Below are positions 2,005-12,178 of a stretch of DNA of 64,000 nucleotides, piece after piece (position 1 is the first letter of the stretch; each line of letters starts with the position of its first letter). Made by a program: the position numbers and the translations under genes. Location: the NCBI GenBank assembly GCA_965198115.1, contig OZ240241.1, positions 4,608,001-4,672,000 on the forward strand, in the 5' to 3' direction. The notes below the pieces were generated by a model. It searched no databases, was not told where the DNA came from, and saw nothing but the letters and a program-made list of their open reading frames with translations. This stretch comes from Candidatus Latescibacterota bacterium (GTDB taxonomy: Bacteria > Latescibacterota > UBA2968).

Positions 2005-3378
2005 GAGCTATAATCAAAAGGTGTGGAAAAAGAGAAAGGGCGACCCTACCCTTCCCGTGAGATAGTTGATTCACACAAAACCGGGTGAGAGGCCCGGTTG
2101 GGAAGGAGGATCGCCGTGAAGGAACATACGCATAGAGCCCCATTGAAGTCCATGCCGACGTGGGAGACGGTTGACGATTGGATCCGTGAAGAGATCCAGG
2201 GCCGGTTCCAGTCCATTCTGGAGGAGGAGGCGACCGCGTTCTTGGGCCGGTCGTGGTATGAGCGCCGAGCCGAGGTCGATAGCTCCAGGGGCTACAGGAA
2301 CGGCTACGGCAAGCCCCGGCGTCTCTCGACGAGCTGCGGAACGATCAAGGTCCGGCGTCCCCGGGTTCGTGGTCTGGAAGAGCGGTTTGAAAGCCGCATC
2401 CTCCCCCTGTTCGCCCGGAGAACCAGGGCCATTGGAGATCTGCTTCCCGACCTTTATCTCCACGGTCTCTCCCAGGGCGACTTCGAGTTGTCTTTGCGTG
2501 CGCTGCTCGGTGATGGCGCGCCGCTTTCGCCGACCTCGATCGCTCGTCTTCGAGGGAAGTGGGAGGTCGACTTCCAGGACTGGAAAGAAAGGCGTCTGGA
2601 TAATCGCGAACTGGTCTACGCCTGGGCTGATGGCATCTACGTCAAAGCCGGGCTCGAGCGCGAGAAGGCGTGTCTGCTGGTCGTGATCGGCGCGATGAGC
2701 GACGGCAGCAAGGAGATCCTGGCGATAGAACCCGGTTATCGAGAGTCTACAGAATCCTGGCTCACGGTGCTCCGGGATCTCCGGGATCGCGGGCTCGAAC
2801 ATCCTGTCCTGATCGCCGCGGACGGGAATATGGGCATCTGGGCGGCCGTTGATCAGGTCTGGCCAGAGAGCCGGCAACAACGGTGCTGGAACCACAAGAT
2901 CCTCAACGTGCTCGACAAGGTCGCCAAGCGTGCACAGGCTGAAGCCCGCGCACTGCTCGTCCAGATCCCCTATGCCGGCACGAAAAAGGAGGCCGAGAAG
3001 CTCCGGAAACGCTTTGCCGCACGGTATCGCTCACAGTTCCCTGCCGCCGTGGAGACGCTCGAAAGAGACTGGGATCGGATGGTCACGTTCTACGACTTCC
3101 CGAAGGAACACTGGAAACACCTGAGAACCACGAACGTCGTCGAGAGCCCCTTTGCTTCCGTTCGGCTTCGCACAAACGCCGCCAGGCGATTCAAGAAAGT
3201 CAGGAACGCCACGGCTCTCATCTGGCGTACGCTCAAGGTCGCAGAGAGCCGATTCAGGAAACTCACCGCGCCACACTTGCTACAACAAGTCTACGATCAG
3301 AAACACTCAACCGGACCGCAGGTCGAAGCCGGGAAGATGGCCGCCTGATTTCTTTTACACACCTATTGACCTGAGCTC
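2005..3378 (+). mobile_element. IS256-family insertion sequence, complete (1374 bp)
   Basis: Imperfect TIRs GAGCTATAATCAAAAGGTGTGG / GAGCTCAGGTCAATAGGTGTGT; 8-bp TSD GAGACACC at 1997-2004 and 3379-3386. Confidence 0.95.
2098..3348 (+). CDS. IS256-family (Mutator-type) DDE transposase; true start probably GTG at 2116
   Basis: YRNGY, WADGIY, ADG, QRCWNH, RTTNVVES motifs; GGAGGA RBS precedes 2116. Confidence 0.95.
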   Translation: MGRRIAVKEHTHRAPLKSMPTWETVDDWIREEIQGRFQSILEEEATAFLGRSWYERRAEVDSSRGYRNGYGKPRRLSTSCGTIKVRRPRVRGLEERFESRILPLFARRTRAIGDLLPDLYLHGLSQGDFELSLRALLGDGAPLSPTSIARLRGKWEVDFQDWKERRLDNRELVYAWADGIYVKAGLEREKACLLVVIGAMSDGSKEILAIEPGYRESTESWLTVLRDLRDRGLEHPVLIAADGNMGIWAAVDQVWPESRQQRCWNHKILNVLDKVAKRAQAEARALLVQIPYAGTKKEAEKLRKRFAARYRSQFPAAVETLERDWDRMVTFYDFPKEHWKHLRTTNVVESPFASVRLRTNAARRFKKVRNATALIWRTLKVAESRFRKLTAPHLLQQVYDQKHSTGPQVEAGKMAA

Positions 3379-3744
3379 GAGACACCAGCTTCGCTTCGTC
3401 GATCAGCGACAGCCAGGCTCCTGACTCTCGGAGTTCTTTAAGGCAGATGCTCAGTTTATGAATGAAGTCTTTCCGGCTTTCGGCGGCTCTCGCCTCCTCG
3501 TAATTCGCCAGTGGTGACGTTCCACATCGGACGAGTTGGCCTGCGATCTGCCGCCCGAAACGAGAGTCGGTAAGATCATCGATCAGGGTACCTATTCTGG
3601 CCGCAGACTTCAGTAACCGCTCTGATAGTTCCTCTGGTGTCATACAGTCTCCTATTTATTGAGGTTCCACTGTTGCGGCTACCACGGGCAAAACCCTTGC
3701 CAGCAATTTCCTAATACGGTGATTCCCTAATTTCATAATCCTCA

Positions 3745-4947
3745 ATGTCCCTCGCTTCTCCCGAACCTTCCCCAGCCCAACTCCCAGCTACATCACCCCC
3801 AGTCACCACCAGAGCCCTGATCCTGGGCACCCTCTGTGTCATCTTCATGGCGTGGGGCGGGCACTGGACGCGCCACATCGGCCATACCACGAAGATGGCG
3901 CAGGACCACCTGCCGTGGGGCGTGGTCGTTCCCTTCTTCATCATTGCGGCGATCCTCAACAAAGTCATTCACAAGGTGCGACCGCAGTCGGTGCTCACGT
4001 CGACGGAGTTGCTCGTCATCTTCGGCATGGCCAACATCGGCTCGGCGTTGCCCAGCTATTTCATGGCGCACCTCATCTCCAACATTGCCGCGCCGTATTA
4101 CTATCCCACGCCCGAAAACGGCTGGGCTATCGATCTCCTCCCGAACATGGTCAAGTGGGCAGTCGTCACGGACCGACAGGCCGTGCGCTGGTTTTTCGAA
4201 GGCCTGCCGCTTGGTGCTTCGATTCCGTGGGGCGCGTGGGCGGTGCCTCTATTCTGGCGAATGTCCCTCGTGGCGAGCGTCGCCTGCTTCTGTTACTGCA
4301 CCGTCGCCATCCTCAGAAAACAGTGGGTCGAACACGAGCGGCTCGCCTTTCCGCTCATGGCCTTGCCCCTTCACACAACTCGACCGAAGGAGTCGGAGGA
4401 AGAAGGCTTTTGGACGATCGGATTCCTGAACCGCCCGCTCTTCTGGGTCGGCGCAGCGATCGGATCGTTCGCGATCCTGTGGAACATCATCGGCGGCTAC
4501 TTCGTTCCGCTGTTCCCGGAGATCCCGCGTGATGCGGGCGTCATCCAATTCGGCACGCACTTTCCTCCCGTTCAGACGCGGATCTATCCGCTCCTCATCG
4601 GCTCGGTCTACTTCATCGACCTCGACGTGTCGCTGACCATCTGGGTCTTCCGGCTCCTGATCACACTCGAGATGGGGTTCCTCAACCGACTCGGTGTCGA
4701 CCTCGGACCGACACACGGGGCTGGGAACACCTTGTTTGAAAACTGGAACGACCTGGGTGCCCTGTTCCTAATCATTCCCTGGAGCCTGTGGATGGCTCGT
4801 GAACATTTGGGGGCCGTCTTCAGAAAAGCGATCCACGGCGACACGCGCGTCGACGACAGCCGGGAACTGCTGCCTTACAGAGGTGCCTTCTTCGGCTGGG
4901 TCGGCAGCGCCCTGTTCATCATTGCGTGGTGTGACGCCTTGCGATAA
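3745..4947 (+). pseudogene. DUF6785-like polytopic membrane protein, 3'-truncated by an inserted element
   Basis: Multiple TM segments, W..W..PL..W and LRKQWVEHERLAFPL motifs; the stop codon is supplied by the element starting at 4930. Confidence 0.7.
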
Positions 4948-5746
4948 TTCTCCGCCCAGCTTAAGCTATTCGCAGAATAGGCAGAATCGTTTCAATACGG
5001 TTAACAGTGGAGACCGTTCCCTAATTGAGTTGAGGGTCGCCTAAGATCTGGCGGCCATGCGACATAGTGCCATAGGAGTACTTACAAGGCGCAACTGCCA
5101 AAAGCGGTTGTCGGACCTACGCCTGATGTCCCTTTCGCGAACGCGTTTGGCACATTCCGGGGGATCGGGACGCGAAACGCTCTCGACCTCCGACGGGTCC
5201 ACGATTGGCAACACCGCCAGGGAGACGGCCGATTTTCTACCCCGCTTCGCCATTTTCAGGCCATTCCGTCGAACCCAAGTTGTCGACTAGCCCAAGTTCT
5301 TGATTTTGAACGCGTTTAAGCGAAAAAGGCACCGAAAAACCCCCTCCTCGTCGACAACGGCCGCCGGAACGCGACCGGACTTGAAATTAGGACGGATTAG
5401 CAAAAGAAACGGTCCACTACAGGTGTCCAAAAGAGAGCTGACCGTTTCCACCCCCCCTACCCCCCTGGTGCGGGCCTCGGGCCAGCGACGCGCCCAGGGC
5501 CAACACCGCGCAACCCCCCTATGCCCACTGGGACCTGGCCTGGCCACGTCTTGAGCCCAATCGGTCGAAACGCGCTATTTTCGCGGTTCGAGAGCCTATT
5601 TCTCGCGCGTGTGGGAAAATGAAAAGGGCGCGGTCTACATCGGAACGCCCAGAGAGTTCATCCTCCCTTATCTCCGGTCGTCAGTTCTTGGTGCGTGAGA
5701 ATGCGAATAGCGTAATCTGGGCGGGAATCTATCGTAAGCCGTAACA
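4930..5746. mobile_element. Non-autonomous TGT...ACA element (817 bp) with 45-bp TIRs
   Basis: 4930-4974 versus reverse complement of 5702-5746: 36/45 identical without gaps; GTGG on both flanks; no transposase. Confidence 0.8.
5041..5253 (-). pseudogene. N-terminal fragment of a phage terminase small subunit-like protein
   Basis: MAKRGRKSAVSLAV...RPDPPE resembles P27-type TerS N-termini; the resemblance ends at about 5155. Confidence 0.55.
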
Positions 5747-5797
5747 GTGGTCAAGTCCAATCCTGAGATGCTCTCTTGGATGTCGAGTGCTCCAGGC

Positions 5798-6910
5798 GGT
5801 CAAGTCCCACACTCAGTTGAAAATTCATCGGGCTCCATAGATTGCTCATGCTCTCTGCCGAGCATGCTGATTGTTGTCGAGATTCAGATCGTTTTTCAAT
5901 GCTTGTCTGAGTAGCGGGAGGTGTTTGTATCCGCTCACGCGTCTCAGGCGGGGGTTCGATGTCGAGGAGTGCGGCCGCGACCCATCTGTGTCTTTGGGGG
6001 GAGTTGTTCCAGCGTTTGACTTTCCGCGTCAGGTCGCCGGTCATGCTGTTGAGCGCCTCGATGCAGTTGGTGGTTCGGAAGCTTCGCTTCAAGAACGGGA
6101 GCATACCCAATCGATGGAGGGTCAGCGTTTCAGCTTCAGTTCGAACTTGAGCGCTTCGAGCGCGGCTTTTGCCTCCTCATATGTGTGGCAGTCGTAGGCT
6201 TTTTGAAGCTTCCGTCGGACTCTGGGACGTTCTCTCTCCGGGAGATAGTTGACGACGACGTTCTCGCGCTTGTGCCACTGACAGCGATGCACGCGAACAT
6301 ATCCCTTCAGGGCTTTCGTGACGGCACTGCGGAGTCCCTTTGAGCCATCCAGCACAACGAGGAGGCCCTGGTCGTAGCACAGGCCTCTCCGGATGAGACC
6401 CTGGATCAGCTGCCGGCAGATCCGTTCGTTCTCTGTTGCTGATTCGACGAAGCCCAGAGGGATCTTCTGGCCGTCCATCGTGACGCCCAGAGCAATCACA
6501 ATCTCTTCGTCGGCAAAGCTCTTTCCGTCGATGAACAGGGCGACCAGATCGTAGTCGTCGATCGGTCGTTCCTGGAACAGCTTCAGCTTCTTGTGCGGTG
6601 GCTTTGATGAACCGTCGCGAGACGGAGGATGCCGAGATTCCGAACGCTTCGGGTACCGATTCTGCACAAGCTCTGTAGTTGCGGCAGGAGATTCCCTTGA
6701 GAACACGAAGCAACAGCTTCTCATCCATCGCTCTGGGCCTCTGCATTCCCCGGTATGCGGCCAGGGCAACCTCCGTATCGGACTCGACGTCCCGCACACG
6801 AGGGATATCTACCGGCAGCTTCTGGTCCAGCAGATACACGGACCCTTTCTGCCTTCCCCACCGTCGATACGCCTGGTCTGACCCCTTGCGAGCATACCGA
6901 ACGCCTGCGA
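5798..6910 (-). mobile_element. Degraded IS256-family element (distinct subgroup) with frameshifted transposase
   Basis: ALFIDGK, VVLDGSKGL, RCQWHKREN, RTTNCIE spread over three frames; end GGTCAAGTCCCACACTCAGTTGAAA. Confidence 0.85.
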
Positions 6911-7419
6911 ACCTAGAACGCCGGCGAACCTACCAGGGGCCGAGCGTCGTCGGGCGTGGCAATCGACGCGGATTGCAATCTTGTCTGAGGCTGGCCGGGA
7001 CCAGATGTGCCGGATCGGGGAATCCTACTCGCTGGGGCGCTGGACGCTCACGGCCGGGCAGTCTGGCCGACGCGGTCTTGAACGATCTGGCCTCGGGCGT
7101 GCTGCCCGGCGGATCGACGGTTCCACCAATTTAATTATATAATTTGTTGATAAATAAGCTTCTCGATCCCGACCCAGGGCCAGCACATTTTCTGTTTACA
7201 CAGGAAAGGCGTTCCCCTCATTTTTATCGCCATTCTTGAACGGAATGAACGGGACCAGGCAGTCCGCTTATTCATAGTCCTACTAGATTCCAAGATGTTT
7301 AATAATGTGTTTAACTGTCTGTTTGTAAATTACTTGTGGTATATTGGCATCCCTGTGAAGTCTTGTATATTCCAGGACTGAAAGGGTGATCAGTGGTGTG
7401 ATCATAAGAGGGTGACCAA

Positions 7420-8265
7420 GTGGCTCGACACGGCAAGAAACTCACCGCCGCCTTCGTCCGCACCGTCCAGCAGCCGGGTATCTTTTGCGACGAGCATGGA
7501 CTGATTCTACGCGTCAAGCCCTCCGGATACAAGCAGTGGATCCAACGGCTCTTCATCCACGGCAAGCGCCGCGAACTGGGCCTGGGTCCGGTTCGGTTGG
7601 TGACGTTGTCTCAAGCCCGGGAGGCCGCCCTGGCCAACCGCAGACTGGCCCGAGCAGGCGGCGATCCCATGGCGTCCAGGCACCAGTCCGTACCGACGTT
7701 CGAGCAGGCCGCCGCCAAGGTGATCGCAATGCACCGACCGAACTGGAAGAGTGCCAAGCACGCCGCCCAGTGGACAGGGACCCTACGGGACTATGTATAC
7801 CCCAAGATTGGCCAGAAGCGGGTGGATTGGATCAGCTCGGCCGATGTCATGGCCGTCCTGCTGCCGATCTGGAACGAAAAGCACCAGACGGCCCGGCGGG
7901 TGCGGCAACGGATCGGGACGGTAATGAAGTGGGCGATCGCCCAAGGCTACCGGCTGGACAATCCGGCCGGCGTTGCCCAAACCTGGCGGCATCCAACGGC
8001 ACCACCGGGCGTTGCCCTATGAAGAGGTGGCCGAAGCGATCCGAACGGTACGGCAATCCGAGACGGCGGTTGCGGTCAAGCTCGGCTTCGAGTTTCTGGT
8101 TCTGACGGCGAGCCGGTCCGGGGAGGTGCGCGGGGCCCGCTGGGAGGAGATCGATCGAGAAGTCGGAGAGTGGAGGATTCCGGCGGAACGGATGAAGCAC
8201 AAGCGGGAGCACCGGGTGCCATTGTCATCCCGGGCGCAGGAGATTCTGGCCGAGGCGAAACAAAT
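7420..8265 (+). pseudogene. P4-like tyrosine integrase, frameshifted and C-terminally truncated
   Basis: Arm-binding domain GLILRVKPSG.KQWIQR..GKRRELGLG, LVLTASRSGEVRGARW, MKHKREHRVPLS; no HxxR or catalytic Tyr. Confidence 0.9.
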
Positions 8266-8348
8266 ATGCGAGCCGCGCCGGTCAGAGTTTTGGCACTGGC
8301 AGGCACCATGCACAGCAGAGCCAGCAAAGCAAACAAAGCAATTCTCAT
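8263..8348 (-). pseudogene. 5' stub of a secreted protein, possibly thermonuclease family
   Basis: MRIALFALLALLCMVPASA signal peptide followed by KTLTGAARI, cut at the integrase junction. Confidence 0.4.
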
Positions 8349-8391
8349 AATGGGAATCTTCTCAGAGAAACGCACTGAGTCACGGCGAGAC

Positions 8392-8655
8392 CTACTTGTC
8401 CTTCAGTTGCTCCCAGGTCTTCGGTCGCCATTCTCGCGCCAACCGCTGGGCTTCGGCGACTTGTGAAGCAGTCATAATCTCTGCCAGTTTGTCTCTCAAT
8501 AAACGGGAGTCGTCCATCGCCTCACCTGTAGGTCGTGAGGCTGCCAAGTTAACCAACTTGCTGGCTTGGATGTAGTCCGGGGCACGCTCTCTCGCTGATG
8601 TACATGACACCGAGGTTGAATTGGGAATCAGCGTTCCCTTGCTTGGCATCGACCG
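8392..8655 (-). pseudogene. Sel1-repeat protein, C-terminal fragment
   Basis: QGNADSQFNLGVMY, then after a frameshift NLAAS...MTASQVAEAQRLAREWRPK. Confidence 0.8.
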
Positions 8656-9162
8656 CAAGCGGTTGCCCAAGCGGGTCTATCAGGGAGCCGTGGGGAAGCA
8701 ACTCCGTTACTTTGCCCTGAAACTGCCCATCGCTGCCAATGCCAATTCCGCCACGTTCGCCTACGTTGATCCGGGCAAAGATACCGATGCTGAACTGCGC
8801 TCCTGGGGCGACTCGCATGAGTGGCTTTGGAGGGCTTTGAGGTTGAAGGGTATCGAGGTTCAGGTCGTCGTAATCGGAGCGGATCACAAAGCAATGCGGG
8901 CCGAGGGGGTGAGCAGAGCAGTCAGCGAGCAAATGGACCGTGCCGGAACGACCCTGCCGTGAAGGCGGAAATACATTCCATCGAGGAAGCGGTTTTGTCC
9001 TTAGACACGGACATCATAGCGAAGTACGGCGGGTTGCAGGGAGTCTCAGAGCGGTTGAGTTGTTTGAAGAACCTTCCCAAGACAAGCGGCTCAGTGGGAG
9101 CCACAATTGACGGCTACGCGACGTGGGTTTCTGACCGCGTGAGGGCGGAGGAAACAGTCTAG
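8640..9162 (+). pseudogene. Hypothetical protein fragment, frameshifted
   Basis: Protein-like frames 8621-8962 and about 8950-9162 join across a shift; no family recognised. Confidence 0.4.
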
Positions 9163-9740
9163 GAGCCTGTCGGGTTACACCCGGAAGCTCGTTGAGATTA
9201 AGTCCAGCTGAGTTTTTTCCTTGAGCCGAGTTCCTCTTCGGGATCAGGTAGCCAATGAGAGTCGATAGAGTTTCAGAAGGTTGTGTGTGAGACAGATCAG
9301 GTTCCATTCTCTGATGACTTTGTGGATTCGGCGGAATGAGAATCGGGTGAAGTTCCGAACGGATTTGATCTGTCCAAACACGGGTTCGATGATCTGTTTT
9401 CTTTTCCAGTAGGTGCAGCGACCTTTCTGTGTGAGAAGCTTTCTCGCCATTCTGTCTTTCGTCGTTGCGCCCTTGGGATCCGTCCCCTGGGGCAGGTCGC
9501 GATGGGCGTTCCATGTTTCTGTTTTGTCGTCGCCACATAGAGAGGTCGGCGCCATCTGATTGAACCTGATCGACCTGACTTTGGTTGAAGTATCCGGAGT
9601 CGGCAGTGAGGTGCTTGGGTGTCGTGCCGCCCATATTCGCTCTGATCTGGTTGACCATAGGTGTCATCTGGTTCTTGTCATTAGCTTTTTGGGTGACGTC
9701 GGCAGCAACGACAATCTGGGCCTTGTCATCCACAGCAGCT
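9160..9740 (-). mobile_element. IS1182-family transposase 3' remnant with right end
   Basis: QIVVAADVTQ..ND, LTADSGY, RKQIIEPVFGQIK..F.RF, EWNLICLTHNLLKL; end CTAGGAGCCTGTCGG. Confidence 0.85.
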
Positions 9741-9744
9741 TGGC

Positions 9745-10085
9745 AGTTCGAGGAGGGACTGGAGGAAACCCTGACCCTCCACCGGCTGGGTATGCTCCCA
9801 TTCCTGAAGCGAAAGCTTCCGTACCACCAATTGCATCGAGGCGCTCAACAGCATGACCGGCAACCTGATACGGAAGGCCAACCGCTGGACCAACTCTCCT
9901 CAGCGACACAGATGGGTCGCGGCCGCACTCCTCGACATCGAACCCCGCCTGAGACGCGTGAGCGGATACAAACACCTTCCGCTACTCAGGCAAGCACTGA
10001 AACACGACCTGAAGCTCGGCAACGATCAAAACGCTCAGCAGAGAGCATGAGCAAACCACGGAGCCCGACGAGTTTCAACTGACAA
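9745..10085 (+). mobile_element. IS256-family 3' remnant, paralog of 5798-6910
   Basis: EEGLEETLTLHRLG, RWVAAALLDIEPRLRRVSGYKHLP. Confidence 0.8.
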
Positions 10086-10100
10086 TGTGCCAAACATGCA

Positions 10101-10801
10101 GCTCATGTCGCAGCAGGCCCACTCGATCTTGGATCTCTGGTAGGGACTGAGAGCCTCTGTGAAGAACCGATCGATCGTTTTACGCGCCCTGCCGCGGCCA
10201 ACCCACACCACGCAGGAGCGGTCCAGATCGTAAACGAGCGTGGCGTACCTGTGACGCTTGGCGTAGGAGATCTCGTCGATCCCGATGGTTTTGAGCCCTC
10301 GGATACGATGACCTTCACGAAGCCGCGTGATGGATCGGTGAAGGAGATCCGACAGCGTCGAGGCAGAGATGCGCAGCAACTCGGACGCCGCCTTCTGCGT
10401 CATGGTCTGGCAGTAGCGCAGCATGGCATACTCGAAGCGATACGTCACCCGAGAGAACCGCTCCGCCCACGGAATCTCCTCGACCACACGACCGTGGGTA
10501 GGACACCGAATCTCCCGAGGATGGTAGAGAAGCCAGACCCTCCACCCGCACACCGGAATGTCACGCCACCGACGCGGATGGGGCATTGTGCGGACGATTT
10601 TACCTCGACGGCCGCACTCCGGACAACAACAACCATTCTTATGTGGCTTTACGGCGATGACGAAGCAGCTTCTCCCCTCAAACCACCAGCTGACAACACG
10701 GAACCCCTTGAATCTCAGCAGTTTCGATAGTAATCTGCTCCCGGTCATAGGTCGCACCCCCTTCGCTTTGATTGTCCTACACACACAACCAAGCGTAGGG
10801 A
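10101..10801 (-). mobile_element. Truncated ISL3-family element (5' half of transposase)
   Basis: Near-identical to 37449-38869 and 58921-60347; CPECG zinc finger, GIDEISY; stops at WACCDMS. Confidence 0.9.
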
Positions 10802-12178
10802 GAGGTCGAGTCAAGAGGTGTGTAAATAGATCAGGCGGCCAGCTTCTTCCCGGAGTCGATTGTGGTCATAGTTTGGTTGTGCTGTGCATAAACAACGTGT
10901 AACAGATGGGGTGCATTGAGTCGCCGGAAGCGTTTCTCGGCGACCATCAGTGTTCGCCAGATGAGAGCGCTTGCCGAGACGACCTTCTTGTAGCGTTTGG
11001 CGGCGTTGGTTCGTAACCGCACGGATGCAAAGGGGCTCTCGACGATGTTGGTCGTTCTCAGGTGGCGCCAGTGTTCTTCTGGGAAATCGAAGAAGGTGAG
11101 CATCCTATCCCAATCCCGTTCGAGTGTTGCCACCGCCTTCGGGAACTCGTTGCGATATCGTGCGACGAACTGCTTGCGCAGCTTCTCCGCATCCTGACGC
11201 GTGCTGGCATAGGGAATCTGGACGAGCAGTGCACGAGCTTGAGGCTGCTGACGTTTGTGGATCTGGTCCGGGACGTTGAGAATCTTGTGGTTCCAGCACC
11301 GCTGCTGACGGGTGTGCGGCCAGACCTGATCGACGGCAGACCAGATGCCCATATTGCCATCGGCCGCCATCAGAATGGGGTGATCCAAGCCGCGATCCCG
11401 TAGGTCTCTAAGGACAGCCAGCCAGGACTCGGTCGACTCGCGATACCCAGGCACCAGGCCCAGAACCTCTTTGCGGCCGTCACTCATGGCGCCGATCACG
11501 ACAAGCAGACACGCCTTATCTTTCTCAAGTCCGGCTTTGACGTAGATCCCATCGGCCCAGGCATACACGAGCTCACGATCGTCCAGGCGTCGTTCCTGCC
11601 AGGTCTGGTAATCAACCTCCCATTGACCGCGGAGGCGAGCAATCGACGAGGGGGAGAGCGGAGCCCCATCACCGAGAAGCCCTCGCAGGGCCAACTCGAA
11701 GTCGCCCTGAGACAGACCGTGGAGATAGAGCTCCGGGAGCAGTTCCCCCACCTCTCTCGTGCGCCGAGCGAACAACGGCAGAATCCTGCTCTCGAAGCGC
11801 TCCTCCAAACCGCGAACACGGGGCCGCTTGATCTGGATCGTGCCGCAAGAGGTCGACAATCGCCGCAGCTTCCCATAGCCGTTGCGATAACCGGATCTTG
11901 CATCTACGGCTTCTTTGCGCTCATACCACCCGCGTCCGAGGAACTGGGTCACTTCCTCCTCAACGATGGACTGAATGCGAACCTCGATTTCCTTACGCAA
12001 CCACCCCTCAAGGGTTTCCCACGTCGGCATGGACAACGAGGGGGACTTCGACTTATGTTTTCCCACGGCGATCCTCCTTCCCACCGGGCCTGTGAACCCG
12101 GTATTTCGTGGATATTGTTATCTCACGGGAAGTGTAGGGTCGCCTTTTCTATTTTTCCACACCTATTGATTGTAGCTC
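10802..12178 (-). mobile_element. IS256-family element related to but distinct from 2005-3378
   Basis: TIRs GAGCTACAATCAATAGGTGTGG / GAGGTCGAGTCAAGAGGTGTGT; flanks do not form a TSD. Confidence 0.92.
10831..12084 (-). CDS. IS256-family transposase
   Basis: 417-aa ORF with the same motifs as 2098-3348. Confidence 0.95.
   Translation of the reverse strand: MGRRIAVGKHKSKSPSLSMPTWETLEGWLRKEIEVRIQSIVEEEVTQFLGRGWYERKEAVDARSGYRNGYGKLRRLSTSCGTIQIKRPRVRGLEERFESRILPLFARRTREVGELLPELYLHGLSQGDFELALRGLLGDGAPLSPSSIARLRGQWEVDYQTWQERRLDDRELVYAWADGIYVKAGLEKDKACLLVVIGAMSDGRKEVLGLVPGYRESTESWLAVLRDLRDRGLDHPILMAADGNMGIWSAVDQVWPHTRQQRCWNHKILNVPDQIHKRQQPQARALLVQIPYASTRQDAEKLRKQFVARYRNEFPKAVATLERDWDRMLTFFDFPEEHWRHLRTTNIVESPFASVRLRTNAAKRYKKVVSASALIWRTLMVAEKRFRRLNAPHLLHVVYAQHNQTMTTIDSGKKLAA

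Follow-up and report, generated by a model that had tools for sequence, protein, structure and literature searches.

The window, a stretch of 64,000 nucleotides from the genome of a Candidatus Latescibacterota bacterium, contains a short element that carries no gene and is present in about 19 copies in one chromosome (8.43 Mb, single contig), 18 of them with both ends. With moderate confidence we regard it as a transposon that spread by transposition, with Mu-like ends on which a transposase supplied in trans would have acted, and with a cargo of predicted packaging signals as passenger. The coordinates of its parts and of the features to which they were compared are given in Table 1.

Table 1. 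Features of the element and its neighbourhood (positions in the window) and two related features elsewhere in the genome (last two lines, chromosomal positions)
Feature	Position	Strand	Remarks
Element, whole	4930-5746 (817 bp)		gene-less, without transposase
Left end	4930..4974	+	TGT-N5, then predicted transposase sites with 22-bp period (CTTGCGATAA / CTTAAGCTAT)
Right end	5702..5746	-	anatomy as left end (CTTACGATAG / ATTACGCTAT)
terS 5' stub	5158..5253	-	phrog_12559 family; likeness over codons 1-32 to 35
IHF-like 13-mer	5293..5305	-	between unit B and terS stub
Cos-like unit B	5375..5465	-	G-tract, spacer, ACC(G/T)GT core, T-tract; hypervariable, mosaic among copies
G-tract	5445-5464		
Cos-like unit A	5595..5675	-	core TAGACCGCGCCC at 5626-5637
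DUF6785 gene	3745..4929	+	insertion target, outside the element; PF20581, profile 1-372 of 498
IS256/Mutator-family remnant	5798..6910	-	adjoins the element, outside it
Truncated Mu-type transposase	1434299-1435678		
Predicted cos of resident prophage	663,740-663,765		

The 45-bp inverted ends are identical at 36 of 45 positions, the value already given in the initial annotation of the window, and the best inverted match of 45 nt in 12 shuffles of a 4-kb region was 28–31. Both ends begin with TGT-N5, followed by CTTRCGATA and a degenerate repeat of this motif 22 bp further in, and the insertion truncates the DUF6785-like gene, the ORF of which stops within the left end; these points had likewise been described correctly. 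A profile of the ends has 39 matches in this genome, 20 left and 19 right ends, all belonging to copies of the element, which answers the question whether there are further copies. The paired copies are 751–823 bp long in 17 cases and 3,598 bp, through IS insertions, in one; identity among copies is 89.0–99.7%, they interrupt host genes, and in this genome all carry the same cargo. The initial view of a non-autonomous, multi-copy TG..CA element is thus borne out by 18 paired copies without transposase, and in its inverted ends, lack of a transposase, dispersed copies and target duplication of fixed length the element is a MITE.

A perfect 7-bp target duplication flanks 12 of the 18 paired copies. 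One further pair has a 6/7 duplication, two form a composite with a shared outer duplication (see below) and three, among them the window copy, have none. To the left of the window copy stands the 7-mer TGCGTGG, of which the right flank has GTGG alone in common. GTGG had been proposed as a possible 4-bp duplication; this was rejected in view of the 7 bp of the family (12 of 18 pairs), and GTGG is, to judge from the flanks, probably a rearranged junction, because the right flank does not continue DUF6785.

The cargo includes the beginning of a terS gene. Its frame, from MAKRGRK (ATG at 5253) to RPDPP (ending at 5158), was located where it had been drawn before, as was the G-tract. An exhaustive search with the stub peptide gave nine matches at E ≤0.001. 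Six of them are 69–74% identical over residues 1–35 (E about 1e-7 in 1.84 billion); the remaining three are two near-copies of the stub and one unrelated protein of 2,019 aa. Three of the six extend to the core of TerS (a match to phrog_12559 at E 1e-15 to 1e-17 over positions 1–79 of the 140 in the profile) and are themselves truncated. In the opposite direction, a profile of 122 TerS of the phrog_12559 type placed 15 element copies and one relative lacking the ends at the top of 183,541 six-frame segments (E 6e-4 to 5e-3; next 1.1). Judged by these matches the peptide is a real TerS stub of 35 codons, and none of the three outcomes that the initial annotation had named as fatal to its view (no TerS match, ends found nowhere else, unrelated cargo in other copies) was observed.

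Likeness to TerS stops near codon 32; the tail beyond scores like shuffled sequence (419 of 1,186 scored shuffles were equal or better), and a degenerate terS beyond this codon was rejected for this reason. In the window copy the frame is shifted further on by a 5-bp deletion, and six of the 18 copies have a broken 58-codon stub frame. With PHROG alone, the frameshifted peptide of the window gave E 0.11 to an unknown family and that of an intact copy E 0.26 to terS; a word-index search with the stub and scans of the collections with the long stub gave no match. Among ENA contigs (P0144–P0156) there is a TerS subfamily whose members are truncated near profile position 79 and vary in their tails; two of them lie on contigs of equal length, a hint of a sister repeated element.

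Upstream of the stub a cos region had been suspected. The cos likeness of the cargo held up, the assumption of a single unit did not, there being a second one at about 5595–5675 (unit A). The core of unit A, TAGACCGCGCCC, is the 12-mer across the end-to-start junction of the PAJU2 record (NC_011373); PAJU2 has a TerS of the same family as the stub, and that the junction is the cut site we infer from the ends of the record. This core occurs 15 times in the genome, 14 times within element copies; it is exact in 14 of 19 copies and mutated in five. Moreover, 5631–5648 of unit A agrees in 17 of 18 positions with the predicted cos of a resident HK97-type prophage (42.8 kb, intact-looking, at tRNA-Pro). 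This predicted cos lies between an HNH-like ORF (recognized by eye; no Pfam match) with a hicB-containing insert on one side and terS on the other. The insert, at 663.1–663.7 kb, separates the HNH-like ORF from the cos and comprises hicB and a probable hicA partner.

Both units are present in all 19 copies having the right arm, so that about 38 are dispersed in the chromosome. The best match of a unit B profile beyond the element family (E 0.005) is this predicted cos of the prophage, which immediately precedes the single phrog_9 terL of the genome. In the reciprocal search with the 120-bp HNH-terS interval of the prophage, element copies account for 32 of 34 non-self matches, with two units per copy, and with a profile from five outside phage sequences they take 19 of the top 21 places and the prophage site the 22nd, at single E-values that are weak (0.57–18). 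In its likeness to known packaging starts and its position upstream of terS the cargo resembles cos regions of the HK97/D3 type. The 13-mer between unit B and the stub agrees with the IHF consensus, exactly in the window copy and with one mismatch in 16 other copies. In HK97 the TerS site is 15–29 bp from the cut (PMC11331095), and units of this size could therefore be complete. On the reading of the cargo as passenger, the units are probably still substrates of a terminase.

Parts of the element are also present in 20 run rows from 10 studies; contigs of seven runs were examined. Run X3 contains the left junction of the window copy (DUF6785/element) and a 737-nt contig of another haplotype, and run X4, from another study, a contig of 733 nt in which the two ends enclose a middle unlike that of the copies here. 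The copy number varies between samples. Low depth in X1 over the variant block of the window copy and runs with a small share were left out as evidence, and the contigs of X20, being RNA, are no indicator of transcription.

Diversity among the copies is about 0.01 in the left arm and 0.20–0.23 at unit B. Among 17 copies there are at least 15 recombination intervals (Rm 15), spread along the whole element, and unit B accounts for 12 of the 16 incompatible site pairs at close range; X3, X4 and X6 hold additional variants of it with other flanks. Scrambling by the assembly is unlikely to be behind this mosaic because a control IS is uniform (66 copies at 99.7%) and other haplotypes are found in X3 and X4. 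Cutting and religation by a terminase was rejected as well: the core would then stay joined to its flanks on either side, and the recombination spans the element. Recombination with related sites may have reshuffled unit B. Relatives without ends lie at 8.39–8.40 Mb, three of unit B (74–85% identity) and one of the stub region (97%), beside ParA and Rep-like genes, the Rep call being weak (low-recognition Atlas search). An 82-codon ORF separates unit B and terS there, and the ATG of the element could derive from a deletion between two TGGCGAAGCG repeats. The two predicted HK97/D3-type cos sites and the truncated terS probably came together as a single piece, taken from a satellite or phage that uses cos. 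A truncated copy with the right end and both units is found at 5.972–5.982 Mb among integrases and terS-like genes (phrog_1889 and phrog_2538); this locus is a probable satellite remnant, and its junction is also present in X3.

With Mu-type ends and predicted packaging signals of an unrelated type of virus, the element was likely spread by the enzyme of one virus and might be packaged by that of another. For the spread, transposition alone would suffice, with the cargo as passenger. Unlikely in our judgement is a selected partnership, in which the element would owe its copies to Mu-type transposition, and the terminase of an HK97-type helper would cut at cos and package the element plus host DNA, or cointegrates, which would thus pass from cell to cell; the diversity of unit B would track the helpers. 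It would agree with the two units in every right-arm copy, the exact unit A core in 14 of 19, the peak of diversity and of incompatible pairs at unit B, the resident intact-looking prophage with a similar cos interval and the different middle of the X4 copy; also, there is a known case of a PICI in which two cos sites function (PMC6092414). Against it stand the five mutated cores and the six broken stub frames, the spacings of copies in the same orientation, which are mostly above 100 kb (shorter only 10.6 and 31.2 kb), and the absence of the element from 40 related genomes. A bolder version, in which an 800-bp transposable packaging signal is scattered by a Mu-like transposase and packaged together with neighbouring chromosome by an unrelated HK97-type terminase, its cos alleles being swapped to track helpers, is if anything more doubtful; were it true, the chromosome would become a natural cosmid library.

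A Mu-like transposable phage is the likely source of the ends of the transposon. In a second genome of the class (G068) there is a Mu-like prophage, about 41 kb long, that carries genes for a repressor, DUF3102, transposase, AAA ATPase, Portal_Mu and Mu F, and its left end matches the element ends in register. This left end was set independently, two copies diverging at the same base. It reads TATTGCCG CTTGCGATAA TTTTTCGCCAAA ATCGCGATAA as compared with TGTGACGC CTTGCGATAA TTCTCCGCCCAG CTTAAGCTAT in the element, with 18/22 identity over the first site and the 22-bp period common to both. Over 16.8 million positions of this genome its first 45 nucleotides reach at least 28/45 at 12, and 11 of these are element ends in register; the right end of the window copy (28/45) is among these 12 best. 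The right end of the G068 prophage, which was located by similarity, matches more weakly, the best match outside the element being 28/45. A left-end-like match at G068:C1:32704 lies inside a coding sequence and was taken as chance. It should be noted that this homology to a transposable-phage end with repeated sites was not recovered by the profile of the element ends (R1; 150 of 465 candidates scored), which among 131 other genomes gave eight weak matches (E 0.03–0.08), and that the motif pattern alone is not enriched (4 matches vs 4 and 7 in the control). In the prophage (end of contig C2 and C1 1–33,336; one full and one partial copy) the early and late operons are divergent and there is a terminase ATPase of the gpA type. 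Its left end is TA; such ends are known among transposable prophages (PMC8705779).

The duplication is 5 bp long in Mu and 6 bp in B3 (PMC8705779), and the 7 bp of the element agree with neither. No target duplication of the G068 prophage was recovered from its copies, and the 7 bp are therefore not tied to its transposase family. The element behaves like a mini-Mu MITE, and it is by the length of its duplication that it falls outside classical Mu and B3.

The transposase of a Mu-like phage likely copied the element round the chromosome in trans. At 1,426,120 and 1,436,674 there are two identical direct copies with one outer 7-bp duplication, TCTGTAG, and the 11.3-kb composite that they form encloses, together with DUF3102, a transposase gene of the Mu type (phrog_310, E 4e-27). 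Its product is 41% identical to the transposase of the G068 prophage, which is its best relative among 81 genomes. A cointegrate flanked by direct copies is described for mini-Mu (PMC3145075), and an inverted end fragment abuts in this cointegrate-like setting; the layout suggests replicative transposition, and homologous recombination could yield the same. In this transposase a TGA follows codon 460, as against a family length of about 538 aa, and an IS also cuts the gene; no MuB partner or Mu-like head genes are left, and the helper enzyme therefore looks lost and the mobility of the element may be past. Scans of sequence collections for the transposase gave no match. The composite also has, at about 1.427–1.431 Mb and adjoining an ECF-like sigma gene, a gene for a protein of 1,069 aa that unites the beta and beta-prime domains of RNA polymerase in a single chain.

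Initially the ends had been assigned to a Tn7/Tn5053/IS21/Mu type, of which the Mu-like part stands with the G068 match. A MITE of the IS21 or Tn7/Tn5053 type that carries this cargo and is moved by the transposase of an ordinary IS is improbable. TGT ends with internal repeats would fit, 7-bp duplications occur in the IS21 family, and the genome has 25 IstA-profile and 22 IstB-profile matches, but the IS21-like and rve-element ends inspected have different repeats, for which reason these residents were rejected as partners; the end profile matches nothing else in this genome than element ends, and the positive match is to a Mu-like prophage. Tn7 and Tn5053 duplicate 5 bp, not 7. A 2.2-kb unit with an IS21 transposase is present in two 99.95% identical copies (7128712–7130902 and 5888421–5890611), one end of which resembles a tRNA 3' fragment, as an att site does, and not a TIR.

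It had also been suggested that the element is an internal-deletion relic of a larger transposable satellite (with Mu-type ends, Rep, cos and full terS). The satellite-like remnants at 8.39–8.40 Mb do share the cargo, and longer truncated TerS of the same subfamily occur in other assemblies, but there is no long form among the 18 pairs, and scans of GTDB, JGI and IMG/VR with the end pattern (0, 2, 2, 0 matches, those four by chance) gave no further copy, so that this origin, too, has little probability. A long autonomous partner with the same ends, which the suggestion called for, was found neither in this genome nor in the scanned collections; related ends are those of the G068 prophage. With blastn against phages and plasmids the element gave short chance matches only, an Rfam search gave none, and the unit B motif is absent from IMG/VR in a motif scan. 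Very improbable is a decoy array beneficial to the host, in which the roughly 38 dispersed cos-like units with their variable unit B would titrate terminase or trigger lethal cuts on infection: copies disrupt host genes, are absent from relatives and differ in number between samples.

No paper on such an element was found in the open-access literature. Engineered mini-Mu(LR) (PMC3145075) is like it in consisting of ends only, in depending on a trans transposase and in forming cointegrates with direct copies; the element differs in being natural, in its 7-bp instead of 5-bp duplication, in near-symmetric 45-bp ends and in cos-like sites, for which Mu-type headful packaging has no use. Bacterial MITEs and hitcher elements (PMC11389934) share the lack of a transposase, inverted ends, multiple copies and a target duplication, whereas here the likely helper is a transposable phage and not an IS, and what is carried is a further mobility signal that belongs to a different class. 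Two-cos PICIs such as EcCICFT073 (PMC6092414) and the minimal PICMI satellites (PMC11389934) have in common with the element two cos-like sites resembling those of a resident phage and dependence on a helper. Yet the element, with the cargo of a two-cos PICI, is not a PICI: it has no integrase, Rep, primase or regulator, inserts at random with target duplication and not at att sites, and its cos sites are predicted. From the HNH-cos-terS packaging start of HK97, D3 and PAJU2 (PMC11331095) it has the G-tract, spacer, GACC core and T-tract upstream of a phrog_12559 terS; it differs in two tandem units, a terS cut at about codon 32–35, the lack of HNH and terL, and a distance from core to ATG of about 170 bp vs about 50.

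Even as a relic with a passenger the element would be a natural mini-Mu; it points to a family of transposable phages whose target duplications may be 7 bp long, and it provides about 19 alleles of two cos-like sites. Cos phages are usually poor transducers. If the sites work, such phages would gain many chromosomal packaging starts, and the element would be a new minimal hitchhiker depending on two unrelated phage classes. The surroundings of the window copy (2098–12084) are densely nested IS256/Mutator-family, ISL3-like and integrase fragments, and the genome, with 8.4 Mb, is far bigger than those of most relatives (about 4–6.5 Mb). The window copy (at 4,612,930) and its neighbour (at 4,581,736) have the same orientation and lie 31.2 kb apart, which is 73% of the length of the resident prophage.
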